Made by a program: the position numbers and the translations under genes
Assembly (NCBI GenBank): GCA_902474645.1
Contig: CABRWN010000001.1
Span: 1-42,136, forward strand
Length of the DNA stretch: 42,136 nucleotides
Direction of reading: 5' to 3'
DNA from: an uncultured Collinsella sp.
GTDB lineage: Bacteria > Actinomycetota > Coriobacteriia > Coriobacteriales > Coriobacteriaceae
The notes under the pieces: generated by a model
What the model saw: the letters and a program-made list of their open reading frames with translations, nothing else
What the model was told of the DNA's origin: nothing
The model's database searches: none
Shown here: positions 28,923 to 42,136 of the stretch, piece by piece
Numbering within the stretch: the first letter of the stretch is position 1
Layout: each line of letters begins with the position of its first letter

Positions 28923-31900
28923 CTAGCGCTTCTTTGGGATCGACCTAAGGCGAGCGAACCATAGGGCTGCGACACCCGAGGTCAGGAGCGCGGTGATGCA
29001 AGCGGCGATGGGAGCTGATCCTGTTGCCGGTAGGTCCTGCGGTAGGGTACAGCGTTGAATGACGCTGTCCTCGTCATGTGACTCAAGTTTATCGCCGCCG
29101 CCGTTGCGGCAAAGATCGACGCGCGCGCTGTTGGTGAGTGCGGTTTGGGGCGTATAAGCCGACGTTGCCTGCATGTGTACGACTGCGCCCCGAGCGTCTG
29201 TGCCAAGGATTGCTTTGGCATCGTCAAGGTCGTCGTGCTCATCTTTGAGATCATCGCGGGTCCAAGAATCCACATCGCTTCGAGTCGTAAAGTCGGCGGC
29301 TACCGCACCGTATTCAATTCGAATGCCCGTTACGACGGTATTGGACGCAAGGTCGAGTTCTTTCGCCTCGAGTGTGGTGGATTCCGTGGTCGAGACATCC
29401 GCCTTCCAGAGGTGCCAGCCGTCGTAATCGACGAGGCGGCAATCCTCACCCAGACTCTCCCTTACTTCGTCGGACTCAAGCCAAGGATTTTCGTGCCCAT
29501 CGTCAAGTGTCGCGTTTGCCGGCTCATCGACGTCTGTCGAGTCCAACGGCGTCGTGCGATACCACACGTTGCACAGACCATTGAGGTCGCCGATGGCGAC
29601 GGGGGTTTCGATTGAGACGAATCTCGCCGTATCGTCCTCGGCACACTCAAGATCATCGGTAATTGTGAACTCATCAACCCAGGTAGTTGAATCGTTTCGA
29701 GCGTCGATGGTATAGGAGAAAAGCCCGTCCGTATTGGTTTGCATCGCGGCACGGTTTTTACCATCGCCGTTAGCCAACAGGCCCTTTTCGATAGGTTGGA
29801 CAAGTTCCTGACGCTTGTCGACCTGCCCCTTGATCTCGATGGGCGCATCCTTCATCGCGACGGATTGGACTTCTCCCGTATCCTTTATTTCAAACGTTAT
29901 CTCCTCGGCAAGGTCATAGGTCCGCGGAGACATCATTTCGCGCAACGAGTAGGTGCCGGGTGCAAGATGTTCGACGCGGTGTGGCTTGTCGGATGAGGTC
30001 CAGGAGTCTATTTCGGTTTTATCGGGACCATATAAGGCGAGCTGTGCGCCTTCCACTTCCTGCTCACCGCTTGCATCGACCTTGGAGATATCAACCTTGG
30101 TGTAATCGTCGGATACGTTAAGCCGTGCTTCTACAACGGGTGTTTTCTGGTCGGCATAAGTAAGGTCGACAATATGGGTTGTCTGATCGAGCAAGAAGCC
30201 TGCCGGCGCTTGAGTCTCGACAACCTCGTAGCGTGCGGTGCCAGATCCCAGTGGGAGGTTGCCCGCGCGTGCTTCTCCAGTTTCATCCGTCGTGACGGTC
30301 GCGACAGTCTCACCGTCGAGCGCGGCAATGCTACCGTCGGGGCGCACGATATCACCCGAGGCACGGATCTCAAAGACGGCGCCCGCGAGGCTGCTGCCGT
30401 CTATGGCATCGGTTTTAACGATCCTGATGTTTCCGGTCGCGGCGTGGTCATAATACGAGGCGATTGCAACGGGCGTTAGGTTCATGTCGGCGGGTATGTT
30501 TACCTCGATCTCTTCGCCGACAAGATAGGGCTCTTTGGCCGAGGTTTCGCGTACATAATAGGTGCCCGGCACGAGCGATTCGGGCAGTGTGACGGTCCCG
30601 GTCGCGTCAGTCGTAAAGGTGTCCATTACGTTATGTGCTGGATACCAGCAAGTTTGTGAGACAGGTTCGTGATTGCTGTCGAGGAGTTGGAAGGTGAATC
30701 CGGCTAGGGGAACAGAAGCGCCTGTTTGGGCATCGCGTTTTACAATCTGGAGATGCGTCGACAGAGCGTGGTTGTCCACGATATATTGAAGCTCGGCGCC
30801 GTCGGAAATCTGATTGGCCCCGACGGTCCATTCCCCTGCACGTTTAAAACCCTCGGGGACGGTTTCCGGAACCTCGCGAACCGTGTAGCCGGCACGGTCG
30901 TATGGGACGGCTCCGTGGACACCGGCGGGTCGCTTGCCTGTGCCGAACCATGCTTCGGGCTGATCTTTGGTGGAGGCAAAGCCATAGATGTTTGTGATCA
31001 GTGTGCCAACAACCTGCTGAGAGCTGTTGCTGACAACCTCAAAGACAACACCACCCGCCGGCTGCTCCAGGCCGGATTGGTCGCTATTGCCGTAATCCTT
31101 GAATTTGGAAATCTCAAGGTTAAACGCAATGGGGATATCGGAAACGCGAGATTCGATCTCGACCACGCCCGAATCGCCGAGCTGGTCGGCTCCAACGGTA
31201 TAGGTCCAGCTGTCGTTGGATGGCAGGTAGCCCTCGGGGGCTTTTGATTCGTAGATGGTAAAGGTTCCTAAGGGGACATCGGCGAGGGCGGCCCGACCGC
31301 TTTCGTCGGTCGTGAGGATTTGTGCCCATCCAGGGGTTGATTGCGACACACACGTGAACTCTGCTCCTGCGAGTGAAGATCCCACCTGGGGGCCGGCATT
31401 CGTCGCGGCATCGAGTTTTACGATACGCAGGTTGATGGTGCCGGGCTGTTCATCAATGGCGACCCGCCCGCCGTCATTCCCCGTGGTAAAGGCAATACGA
31501 TCGTGGCGGGGGACATAGCCGGCCGGCGCCTTCGTTTCAACTAGGTAGTATGCCGTGTTGGGCAGAAGTGTTGCTTGCGCTCGACCGTTGCTGTCCATCT
31601 TGATGGTGCCGACACGCGCGCCGCTGGCGCTCTCAAAAATATCGAATGTTGCCCCGGTAAACTGATAGGTATTGTTTCCGCTGGTAATAACGGTGTTAGC
31701 AGACTGCTTTTGGAAGGAAACAGAGACCGCCGGCAGTACATAGAGCATGTCTTGACGTTTGCTGCCGCCCGATACGGCCCCTAGATAGCGTCGCGCGCGG
31801 TGCGGAGCGGCTTTGATGCTTCCTGATTTTGCGCTGTCGTGGAGCCACCGCGCAGCCGCCACGACTTCATTGTCGGCGGTAAAGTGTCCGCTCTTGGTTT

Positions 31901-32354
31901 TACCCTGAGCGGTCGTGTAGGAGTAGGTGCCGTCGACATGGGTAGTGCCGTTGAGCATCCATACGGCAAGCTGGGTGGCGGCGCGGGCGCGATCGGGTGA
32001 AAGATGGTAACCGCCAAACGACGTGGTGGTTGGATATCCGTGACAAACGATTGCCGCGAACTCGTCGTCGAGCCACACCCAGCCTTGATCAAAGTTGAGC
32101 CATGGGCCGCCCGGTTTGGTGGGGCCGGGGCGCTCCTGGTTCATGCAATAGGCAATCGAGGTGTCTTGAGCTTCATACTTGCCGATGAAGAAGGGTCCAC
32201 AATCATCGCTAATAGTGCGGAAGCCGAGCTGGTCGTAGCCATCGACGGCAAATGCGGCTCCCGGTGCCAGGCAGCCGAAAAGCAGGAAGAGGAGCAGGAG
32301 CAGCGGACCTGTTGCGATTGCGCTGTGGACAGAGTGCGTGGGTGCGTTGGACAT
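28923..32354 (-). CDS. sortase-anchored surface adhesin with thioester domain (TED) and SpaA/Cna-B isopeptide repeats
   Basis: Signal peptide; AYCMN, ATQLAVW and RQDML TED motifs; repeated L.GA.F / Y...E..AP.GY units; C-terminal LPATG + TM + basic tail. Confidence 0.9.
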   Translation of the reverse strand: MSNAPTHSVHSAIATGPLLLLLFLLFGCLAPGAAFAVDGYDQLGFRTISDDCGPFFIGKYEAQDTSIAYCMNQERPGPTKPGGPWLNFDQGWVWLDDEFAAIVCHGYPTTTSFGGYHLSPDRARAATQLAVWMLNGTTHVDGTYSYTTAQGKTKSGHFTADNEVVAAARWLHDSAKSGSIKAAPHRARRYLGAVSGGSKRQDMLYVLPAVSVSFQKQSANTVITSGNNTYQFTGATFDIFESASGARVGTIKMDSNGRAQATLLPNTAYYLVETKAPAGYVPRHDRIAFTTGNDGGRVAIDEQPGTINLRIVKLDAATNAGPQVGSSLAGAEFTCVSQSTPGWAQILTTDESGRAALADVPLGTFTIYESKAPEGYLPSNDSWTYTVGADQLGDSGVVEIESRVSDIPIAFNLEISKFKDYGNSDQSGLEQPAGGVVFEVVSNSSQQVVGTLITNIYGFASTKDQPEAWFGTGKRPAGVHGAVPYDRAGYTVREVPETVPEGFKRAGEWTVGANQISDGAELQYIVDNHALSTHLQIVKRDAQTGASVPLAGFTFQLLDSNHEPVSQTCWYPAHNVMDTFTTDATGTVTLPESLVPGTYYVRETSAKEPYLVGEEIEVNIPADMNLTPVAIASYYDHAATGNIRIVKTDAIDGSSLAGAVFEIRASGDIVRPDGSIAALDGETVATVTTDETGEARAGNLPLGSGTARYEVVETQAPAGFLLDQTTHIVDLTYADQKTPVVEARLNVSDDYTKVDISKVDASGEQEVEGAQLALYGPDKTEIDSWTSSDKPHRVEHLAPGTYSLREMMSPRTYDLAEEITFEIKDTGEVQSVAMKDAPIEIKGQVDKRQELVQPIEKGLLANGDGKNRAAMQTNTDGLFSYTIDARNDSTTWVDEFTITDDLECAEDDTARFVSIETPVAIGDLNGLCNVWYRTTPLDSTDVDEPANATLDDGHENPWLESDEVRESLGEDCRLVDYDGWHLWKADVSTTESTTLEAKELDLASNTVVTGIRIEYGAVAADFTTRSDVDSWTRDDLKDEHDDLDDAKAILGTDARGAVVHMQATSAYTPQTALTNSARVDLCRNGGGDKLESHDEDSVIQRCTLPQDLPATGSAPIAACITALLTSGVAALWFARLRSIPKKR

Positions 32355-32651: not shown

Positions 32652-32726
32652 GCGGGCATCGCCAAGTGGTAAGGCATCAGCTTCCCAAGCTGACACTCGC
32701 GGGTTCGAGTCCCGTTGCCCGCTCCA
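32652..32726 (+). tRNA. tRNA-Gly(CCC)
   Basis: Acceptor GCGGGCA/TGCCCGC, anticodon arm TCAGC-TTCCCAA-GCTGA, GGTTCGAGTCC T-loop, encoded CCA. Confidence 0.96.
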
Positions 32727-32736
32727 TTCGAATTTC

Positions 32737-32769
32737 AGGCACGGTAACGTTTCGTTACCGTGCCTTTTT
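32737..32769 (+). terminator. intrinsic terminator after tRNA-Gly
   Basis: AGGCACGGTAACG-TTT-CGTTACCGTGCCT + T-run. Confidence 0.85.
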
Positions 32770-32780
32770 CAATAAAGTGC

Positions 32781-33047
32781 CGGGACTCGAACCCGACAGG
32801 GTGCGAGCGTTAAATAAACGCGAAGCGTTTATAGCGAGCAGGCAAGGTCGCCGATAGGCGGCCGCAGCCGGTGCGCGTCCGCGACGCGGGCGCGCGGACG
32901 TCCCGTTGCCCGCTCCATCGAGTACGGGGGACCTCGGGAACGTCGGGTCCAACCCGCTGTGCCCGTGCGTGTGCGCGGACCGGGTCTGCCGACCGCAGCC
33001 GGTGCGGATTTGCGAAGCAAATACGCGGATGTCCCCATGGCTGCTCT
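32781..33047 (+). repeat. tRNA-Gly-linked structured repeat units (one complete, one degenerate)
   Basis: 15-bp antisense T-arm copy 32781-32795; 19-bp tRNA 3'-end direct repeat 32900-32918; CCGCAGCCGGTGCG repeated at 32862 and 32993; degenerate 3'-end copy 33031-33047. Confidence 0.8.
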
Positions 33048-41524: not shown

Positions 41525-41600
41525 GGGCCGTTAGCTCAGCTGGCAGAGCAGGGGACTTTTAATCCCAAGGTCCAGGGTTCGAACCCCTGACGGCCCACCA
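41525..41600 (+). tRNA. tRNA-Lys(TTT)
   Basis: Acceptor GGGCCGT/ACGGCCC, anticodon loop CTTTTAA, GGTTCGAACCC T-loop, encoded CCA. Confidence 0.96.
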
Positions 41601-41605
41601 TAGAA

Positions 41606-41643
41606 AAGAAAGCGATCAACTCCGGTTGGTCGCTTTTTTTGTT
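41606..41643 (+). terminator. intrinsic terminator after tRNA-Lys
   Basis: AAAGCGATCAAC-TCCG-GTTGGTCGCTTT + T-run. Confidence 0.8.
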
Positions 41644-41845
41644 GCCGGTGCGCGGGTTCGAACCCGTCGGGGCGCGGAGCTGAGTAAACGCGTGAGCGTT
41701 TGCCAGTGCAGCGCGCAAGGCGCGAAAGCGCCGCAGCGGCCGCCTGCGAAGCAGGCTGAACCCCTGACGGCCCACCCAAAGATTGTTGAGACGGTCAACT
41801 TCGGTTGGCCGTCTTTTTTGTCGCCCTTTCATGGGTTCGAACCCG
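41644..41845 (+). repeat. tRNA-Lys-linked structured repeat unit plus the start of a second unit
   Basis: GGGTTCGAACCCG at 41654 and 41833; 19-bp tRNA 3'-end direct repeat at 41758-41776; duplicated terminator-like hairpin ~41789-41820. Confidence 0.8.
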
Positions 41846-42136
41846 TATCTATCTATATATAAGAACGCTTGGCGAACAAAACCCGCCTTTTACCGACGGG
41901 AAACAAATAGCCTGATGCTTTTGGAGTAAAGTGGCGCCCCAGAGATGACCGATGCCTTAACACCTATAAACCAGCTGGTCATCGTCAATATCAGAAGCAA
42001 TGCTTCAGTTTTAACCTCAGTGGTGCGACTGAGGGACCTATTCATTTGTGAACAAAATATGGAGTGCCAGATTCCCGCCCGCGGGGCCCCTCCGGTCTGG
42101 CAATATATCTCCTTGCCGCGCGGCCCGGTCGGACCG

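Follow-up and report, generated by a model that had tools for sequence, protein, structure and literature searches.

What occupies the DNA immediately behind the tRNA-Gly(CCC) gene of an uncultured Collinsella species, and by what process might it have come to be there? The gene lies within a stretch of 42,136 nucleotides, which we analysed as a whole and refer to here as the window. A preliminary description of this locus had proposed that the tRNA gene is followed by tandem structured units, and every element that it listed was recovered in place by ARAGORN, Rfam and repeat comparison. Positions 32728-33047 comprise an intact unit of 191 nt and a decayed unit of 131 nt, both of which belong to a non-coding cassette family that is specific to the 3′ ends of genes for tRNA and tmRNA.

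The tRNA gene (32652-32726, on the plus strand like all other features of this locus described below) was identified by ARAGORN and scores 63.5 bits with the Rfam tRNA model. It is intact, encodes its CCA end and carries its T-arm at 32700-32714. Positions 59-76 of the tRNA together with one additional T (32709-32727) recur as a 19-nt direct repeat at 32900-32918, where this second copy of the tRNA 3′ end (the tail) closes the intact unit. Under an insertion model, the copy at 32709-32727 would be the one that was carried in by the unit. Downstream of the tRNA is an intrinsic terminator hairpin of 13 bp with the loop TTT and a subsequent run of T residues (32737-32765), which belongs to the tRNA-specific module of the unit. 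This is followed by a segment (32781-32795) that is antisense to tRNA positions 64 to 50 and is the reverse complement of the T-arm. As the preliminary description had stated, both the inverted and the direct repeat are exact. The antisense match widens to 22 nt at 86% identity (32693-32714 versus 32781-32802), thereby reaching into the variable region of the tRNA.

The rest of the intact unit consists of hairpins. In the minimum-energy fold of the plus strand, nucleotides 32781-32786 of the antisense T-arm pair with the beginning of the tail (32900-32905), and nucleotides 32787-32794 form the 5′ strand of hairpin H1 (32787-32806), which is composed of the 3′ half of the antisense arm, a GACA loop and the T-arm-like start of the core. 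Hairpin H2 (32808-32836), whose core helix pairs 32815-32821 with 32825-32831 around a GAA loop, has the best conserved sequence in the family. The sequence of H3 (32838-32872) varies among family members, with changes on both sides of three of the four pairs of its inner helix. H4 (32873-32899 with its linker) pairs 32873-32882 with 32886-32895 around a GAC loop, shows changes on both sides of four of five pairs, and leads through the linker GGAC directly into the tail. All four hairpins proposed earlier are thus present in this fold, as is the proposed closing helix between CGGGAC and GTCCCG, although the first of the four (ACCC-GACA-GGGT) proves to be only part of the longer H1.

Beyond the tail lies the decayed unit (32919-33047), with a degenerate antisense T-arm at about 32944-32957, the shared hairpin module at 32990-33029 and a degenerate tail at 33031-33047. 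Its positions 32990-33046 are 72% identical to positions 32859-32915 of the first unit. The second unit is therefore real and its tail is degenerate from 33031, as had been suggested, but to call it a decayed copy of the first unit would be too simple. Rather, it is of a 131-nt type that is kept in several other species too.

A search of this region against the Rfam families, RtT included, with cmscan at E values up to 10 returned only tRNA above the gathering score, and neither ARAGORN nor the Rfam tRNA model detected a tRNA or a pseudogene cloverleaf on either strand of 32728-33047. The 191-nt unit holds no integrase or recombinase gene, and the nearest open frames are chance frames. One promoter-like site was found in the scanned region of the window, upstream of the tRNA. 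Just upstream of the tRNA there is also an open frame of 1143 codons on the opposite strand (28923-32354), whose predicted product ends in LPATG, a hydrophobic stretch and basic residues, and is probably a sortase-anchored surface protein.

The same cassette stands behind eight tRNA or tmRNA genes of this genome: Gly(CCC), Glu(TTC), Ser(GCT), Ser(CGA), Val(TAC), Lys(CTT), Lys(TTT) and tmRNA. In each case the order is the tRNA, a terminator, an antisense copy of that tRNA's own T-arm, a related core of ~105 nt, and that tRNA's own 3′ end from position 59. When a profile of the eight copies was run against the genome with nhmmer, it returned exactly eight full copies and three adjacent partial ones, and none elsewhere. 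Among the 37 tRNA and tmRNA genes for which 100 nt or more of sequence is available downstream, a 20-nt measure of antisense matching gave values of at least 13 of 20 (range 13-19) for ten genes, with the match located 48-72 nt downstream, and values of 12 or less for all others. A looser count places an antisense T-arm 52-76 nt downstream of 11 of the 41 genes that could be evaluated, one misparsed record having been left out. Because the pattern recurs behind many tRNA genes, it is beyond what chance would produce. Only the terminator and the antisense arm remain at the Arg-ACG, Leu-CAG and Gln-TTG loci.

A second instance is present in the window itself, behind tRNA-Lys(TTT) (41525-41600). 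A terminator and an antisense arm precede its core, which occupies 41649-41781, and a tail copy at 41760 with one mismatch, a second terminator and a second antisense arm follow. About 330 nt later the contig ends. Across all loci, the antisense arm and the tail track the local tRNA, including its T-loop variants, and the core is common to all. The Val and Glu units are the clearest case, as they are ~90% identical over ~118 nt from the antisense arm to the linker, whereas their tails are unrelated past a shared ATCCC, and their terminators and tRNAs are unrelated too. Such sharing implies either that one scaffold has passed from one tRNA locus to another, unrelated one or that its tRNA-specific module has been swapped, and no other observation is as strong a sign of mobility.

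A MITE of ~390 nt with terminal inverted repeats was also seen directly after the last unit of some arrays or inside its H4. It occurs at Val, Glu and Gln loci of many Collinsella genomes (L033; in the present genome on C33 at about 8330-8720) and seems to prefer these arrays.

Comparison of the copies allows the general anatomy of an intact unit to be described as two modules. The tRNA-specific module comprises the spare tRNA positions 59-76, the terminator and the antisense T-arm copy (from about position 64-76 down to 51), and the shared module of ~105 nt contains the four hairpins, begins with the T-arm-like stretch and stops 2-4 nt short of the next tail. The inner end of the antisense copy is always position 51, and the outer end lies at 64-68, except behind tRNA-Ser(CGA), where it reaches nearly to 76. 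After the antisense arm there is a four-base GNNA loop and a stretch resembling T-arm positions 51-59, which together with the arm gives rise to H1. The well-conserved H2, the variable H3 and H4, the linker of 2-4 nt and the tail then follow. With this arrangement, the antisense arm spans the junction: the T-arm-like stretch that opens the core is the partner of its 3′ half, and the tail is the partner of its 5′ half.

The RNA minimum-energy fold of the plus strand reaches -72.3 kcal/mol (z -3.16), which was equalled by only two of 200 shuffled sequences. With DNA parameters the z-score is -2.59, and the plus strand therefore surpasses its shuffles when folded either as RNA or as DNA, the two comparisons that the preliminary description had recommended; the z-score of the minus strand is -2.17. 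A consensus fold of 32 pairs was derived from ten diverse units that represent eight tRNAs. In this alignment 92.8% of cells pair, compared with 84.8 ± 1.1% in shuffled alignments (none of 500 reach the observed value) and 32-52% in slid controls. Changes on both sides affect 11 of the 32 pairs, against 5.3 in shuffles (again none of 500), and the inner helix of H1 pairs in all ten units. The core fold is maintained by compensatory changes. The alignment also contains 11 G-U cells and two A-C cells, an excess which indicates that the strand in the tRNA sense is the folded one. Many of the loops have the form GNA or GNNA with closure by C-G, which is the motif of unusually stable DNA mini-hairpins, and we regard this as no more than a weak hint of single-stranded DNA.

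The family is not confined to this genome. A covariance model detects it in 16 of 17 other Collinsella genomes, in three of four genomes of two sister genera and, at weaker scores, in six other families of the order, such that 37 of 151 genomes of the order have matches and a single genome holds up to 21 copies. In public sequences, at least 120 stretches match the start of the core, and a tRNA gene was present at 75 of the 80 loci examined, most often one for Val, Lys, Gln, Glu or Ser; the matches listed fall in the genus Collinsella. The same architecture stands behind tRNA-Thr in another Coriobacteriales genome. A single look-alike was seen behind tRNA-Gly(CCC) in an AT-rich metagenome-assembled genome labelled Alphaproteobacteria (L147), where the tail runs ~8 nt into the trailer. 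A literature search at the level of abstracts yielded no published description of the cassette.

Comparison of the Gly locus across species, another step recommended at the outset, reveals that the number of units varies. Twenty loci of the genus hold both tRNA-Gly(CCC) and purB, and the spacer between these genes falls into discrete lengths: 174 nt without a unit in one distant species, 298 nt with one unit at three loci, 427-429 nt with two units at 11 loci (including the present one), 559-564 nt with three units at three loci, 690 nt with four units, three of them identical, at one locus (G013), and 2658 nt at one locus (G010) with an intact unit and a 2.3-kb insert. An invariant locus that shows no structure-preserving substitutions, which the preliminary description had named as the outcome that would speak against it, is not what was found, since both variation and compensatory changes are present. 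The spacer step of 131 nt corresponds to the unit form that has no terminator, no H2 and a degenerate antisense arm. Contigs of other strains, when aligned to the window, skip 131 nt with 14 nt shared at the joint, and forms with one and with three units were observed as well. Given these skips with shared joint sequence and the identical units, unequal crossing-over fits the data, and it explains the copy-number steps at the Gly locus better than new insertion does. Layering can nevertheless be seen: at 11 Gly loci, internal tails are perfect (12 of 12), whereas 8 of the 11 outermost tails are degenerate.

The G010 locus has cargo. Here the intact unit with one terminator allele is followed by a second tail, a different terminator allele and the 2.3-kb insert, which lies between this tail with its terminator and a pair of degenerate tails at its far end. 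The insert has no gene for a recombinase. It encodes, on the opposite strand, a 557-aa protein with Schlafen AlbA_2 and HATPase_c_4 domains (L030, G010:C2).

The Val locus exists in a broader series of states, which include no antisense arm (in two distant species), a terminator and antisense arm only, and one to three units. Terminator alleles often differ between successive Val layers, and among 63 distinct Val arrays the terminator alleles and core variants are thoroughly shuffled across layers, without a discernible preference of the terminators for the core on their left or on their right. At the Val locus of the present genome, the terminators that flank the unit are identical over 67 of 67 nt, and those at tRNA-Arg(CCG) in a genome of another family (G253) differ by one base. 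Identical flanking terminators could have resulted from local duplication or gene conversion rather than from import. A model of target-site duplication was set aside in view of the stacked layers that carry different terminator alleles (G010 and Val), although it would still be compatible with these two loci. The tail copy extends past CCA into the trailer at several loci, and it must thus have been copied from DNA and not from mature tRNA. Reverse-transcribed mature tRNA was set aside as a source for the same reason, since the 18-nt tail starts at position 59 but the copy does not stop before the genomic trailer. A mirror-image duplication centred on the terminator hairpin was rejected, because inspection of the eight copies showed that the spacer on one side is not an inverted copy of that on the other.

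With these observations in hand, we favour the view that the units are non-autonomous insertion cassettes specific to tRNA ends, and we assign this view about an even chance of being correct. In this model, an enzyme encoded elsewhere would catalyse the site-specific recombination that places a unit at T-loop position 58/59 of a tRNA gene, and the unit would bring with it a spare 3′ end and a terminator. The tRNA would thereby be kept whole and properly terminated, and its old 3′ end would be displaced downstream. In the single strand, the antisense arm would pair with the T-arm-like stretch of the core and with the tail, so that a T-arm duplex is rebuilt across the junction, and this duplex might serve as the recombination site by analogy with the attC sites of integrons and the attachment site of CTX phage. 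Arrays would then grow and shrink through unequal crossing-over. All eight full copies in the present genome stand directly behind a tRNA or tmRNA gene, which supports this model, whereas the copy-number steps at the Gly locus fit homologous recombination without any new insertion. The iterative insertion at the T-loop that was proposed earlier thus stands in part: the bounds are at 58/59, the units are layered and the best-preserved unit adjoins the tRNA, but the 131-nt steps are better matched by unequal crossing-over. What the sequences show directly is the anatomy of the units, their recurrence, their tRNA-matched ends, the core common to unrelated tRNAs, the conserved fold and the variable copy number. 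Since no recombinase was found, the mechanism is inferred, and this applies to the act of insertion as well as to a single-stranded intermediate and an enzyme that acts in trans.

The search for such an enzyme covered the recombinase and transposase genes of the present genome. Its tyrosine recombinases comprise two of the Xer type and three others, of which two are phage-type and the third is interrupted by an internal stop; in addition there are a small resolvase, an IS200, an IS110 and three RAYT-like genes. Those that were checked neither lie close to a unit nor have hairpins in common with it, and no piece of a tRNA is found near the tyrosine recombinases. A derivative of IS200/IS605 or REP/RAYT elements was rejected, as neither the IS200 (C17) nor the RAYT-like genes (C53, C85, C189) have flanks that resemble the unit, and a relative of IS110 was rejected because the IS110 copy on C133 bears no resemblance to it. 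The unit is also not the right end of a TnpB element, given that tnpB is absent from this genome above the cut-off and present in only 8 of 121 genomes of the genus, and that none of nine tnpB loci holds a tRNA or a unit. IS91-type Y2 transposases matched in none of the 121 genomes, in a search for which the control genomes were silent too. Outside the window, the RAYT-like Y1 HUH genes on C53 (~5955-6734) and C85 (~4977-5783) encode a C-terminal helix-turn-helix and are flanked on both sides by inverted repeats of ~25 nt in a REPIN-like arrangement. A similar pair of palindromes occurs behind a unit in L075.

A first alternative, which we consider possible but unlikely, is that the unit is a structured RNA similar to rtT, made by read-through from the very active tRNA promoter, whose antisense arm and tRNA-like 3′ end would affect the adjacent tRNA, for example by a part in its maturation or by serving as a decoy, and whose arrays would arise by duplication. 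The compensatory fold, the G-U excess (11 versus 2 A-C) on the tRNA-sense strand and the advantage of that strand over its shuffles (z -3.16) are all expected of an RNA, and at many loci the unit ends in CCA followed by a terminator in the manner of a tRNA gene. However, a strong terminator separates the tRNA from every intact unit, and inspection of the eight copies in this genome showed no conserved promoter-like sequence between the terminator and the antisense arm. There is also no Rfam match, to RtT or otherwise, and an RNA role leaves unexplained why one core is found behind unrelated tRNAs with its ends swapped.

An elaboration of the insertion model would see in the unit a device for insertion that is programmable by nature. 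Its antisense arm and tail, as guides on opposite strands that meet at 58/59, would steer a trans-supplied recombinase to the T-loop of the chosen tRNA, and exchange of the tRNA-specific module would retarget the device with its scaffold kept. We view this possibility as distinctly doubtful. If it is true, the cassette would represent a guide-directed system that spares its essential target by means of a spare part that it carries.

Quite improbable in our judgement, too, is spread that requires no dedicated recombinase, whereby homologous or homology-facilitated illegitimate recombination, with the tRNA as the left arm and the tail as the right arm, would combine with unequal crossing-over, and inverted-repeat gene conversion would keep the antisense arm matched. 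This proposal accommodates much of what was observed, including the 131-nt gains and losses with shared joints, the three identical units of G013, the freely shuffled terminator alleles and core variants at Val, the identical flanking repeats at some loci and the fact that no dedicated enzyme was found. Nevertheless, it does not explain the conserved hairpins or the constant 58/59 junction in unrelated tRNAs, nor the move of one core among Glu, Val and Gln loci without flanking homology.

Prophages do integrate at the same tRNA ends. In all ten viral contigs that bear a core, the core is near the contig end and beside a prophage end. Of five viral records searched, none encodes a tyrosine integrase, but three encode a large serine recombinase, among them every record with a completeness of at least 90% (three in all). 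The serine recombinase genes adjoin the attachment site (L081, 208-1767, minus strand; L082, 1336-2928, plus strand; L083, 1492-3171, plus strand). Two of the recombinase genes run antisense through a tRNA gene (Gln-TTG and Arg-CCT) and contain a terminator hairpin supplied by the phage. One instead reads in the sense direction into a pseudo tRNA 3′ end, after which the elements found at window positions 41600-42136 recur, namely the same terminator and antisense arm, the core and the Lys tail, and in L079 the sequence downstream of the window's tRNA-Lys forms the host side of a serine-integrase prophage junction. Crossover of the phages takes place at the CCA end, whereas the junction of the units is at 58/59. 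The phages also provide their own terminator, and their arm has a different T-arm-like motif, in which the T-loop-like part is 5 nt farther from the CCA end than it is in the tRNA. In lysogens the units are on the host side of the junction. Serine-integrase phages account for some of the debris behind tRNAs but not for the units.

That the units are decay scars of larger integrated elements, either serine-integrase prophages or small islands, is thus very unlikely: these prophages and the core beside them, the phage-like terminator that follows a unit tail in L076 and the G010 cargo island at the Gly locus itself are in its favour, but the crossover point and arm motif of the phages differ, their arms hold no unit core, the units are host-side, and independent decay cannot be the source of the same 105-nt core and boundaries at many tRNAs. 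This agrees with the earlier judgement that the units are too small and too structured for an ordinary prophage scar, and they recur too often for one as well. Searches of phage and plasmid collections gave no match to the unit and no unit-bearing element with genes of its own. As a separate observation, the viral record G057 (L076, L082; 42.7 kb) has a Glu-type unit at one of its ends, and at the opposite end it carries tRNA-Arg(CCT) together with the gene for the recombinase. The Arg(CCT) and Glu-type tRNAs share their last 10 bases, and rearrangement, a secondary attachment site or a chimeric assembly are each possible explanations for this arrangement.

How does the cassette compare with established systems? 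tRNA genes are classic landing sites of mobile DNA, but the tRNA users known to us are large elements with their own integrase, each tied to one tRNA. The cassette resembles such phages, ICEs and islands in its insertion into the 3′ part of the gene, its replacement 3′ end, the old end that persists as a direct repeat, and its arrays at one tRNA; a repeat of the tRNA 3′ segment lies on both sides of the insert and the tRNA is intact. It differs in that it is only 130-190 nt long, has no genes and hence no integrase or recombinase within it, and carries an additional antisense copy of the T-arm. Moreover, one hairpin-rich core serves at least ten different tRNAs as well as tmRNA, with its ends exchanged. 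What is new is therefore not tRNA-targeting insertion, which is known, but its occurrence in miniature, without genes and with exchangeable target-matched ends.

Other precedents share certain features. The 178-nt tandem repeats at E. coli tyrT/tyrV encode rtT RNA, stand directly behind a tRNA and each end in a copy of its 3′ end, as the units described here do. The units have no match to the Rfam RtT model, though, and are parted from the tRNA by a terminator, and neither an antisense T-arm nor a family that spans several tRNAs is known to us for rtT. The attC sites of integrons and the attP of CTX phage that XerCD uses are likewise small hairpins, conserved in structure and variable in sequence, that stack at one site, and their folded strand mimics the target duplex. 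The units show the same combination of conserved fold and variable sequence, but they are set apart by their target, the T-loop of a tRNA, and by the place of the branch point, which is within the mimic and not at its end, and nothing was found that ties them to an IntI-type enzyme or to the Xer-type genes of the genome. Similar to REPs or REPINs with RAYTs and to IS200/IS605 miniatures, the units are short, non-coding, hairpin-rich and multi-copy, and those elements are presumed to be mobilized in trans via single-stranded DNA. However, the RAYT-like genes of this genome have distinct repeats, its IS200 has different ends, and REPs do not have target-matched ends. The units also do not have the makeup of a MITE, because their sole inverted ends are 6-10 nt long and copied from the local tRNA, and their direct repeats measure 18-67 nt. 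Finally, the bridge RNA of IS110 and the omega RNA of TnpB and IscB are structured scaffolds flanked by matches to the insertion target. The unit is like them by design only, in having a scaffold with target matches on opposite strands that meet at the insertion point. There is no linked IS110 or TnpB gene, and the matches of the unit are terminal and 14-26 nt long rather than located in short internal loops.

For those who work with these genomes, the cassettes are of practical importance, as they adjoin contig ends in some assemblies and form the host side of serine-integrase prophage attachment sites, and they mislead the calling of prophage boundaries. More broadly, a structure-conserved cassette without genes stands behind up to about a quarter of the tRNA genes in a common genus of the human gut, and each tRNA is kept working by a spare 3′ end and a terminator, with one scaffold serving all through exchangeable target-matched ends. 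If the cassette is an RNA, it would constitute a large unrecognized family associated with tRNA operons. Should it instead be mobile, it would be the smallest known tRNA-targeting element, and its choice of target would need a new explanation.
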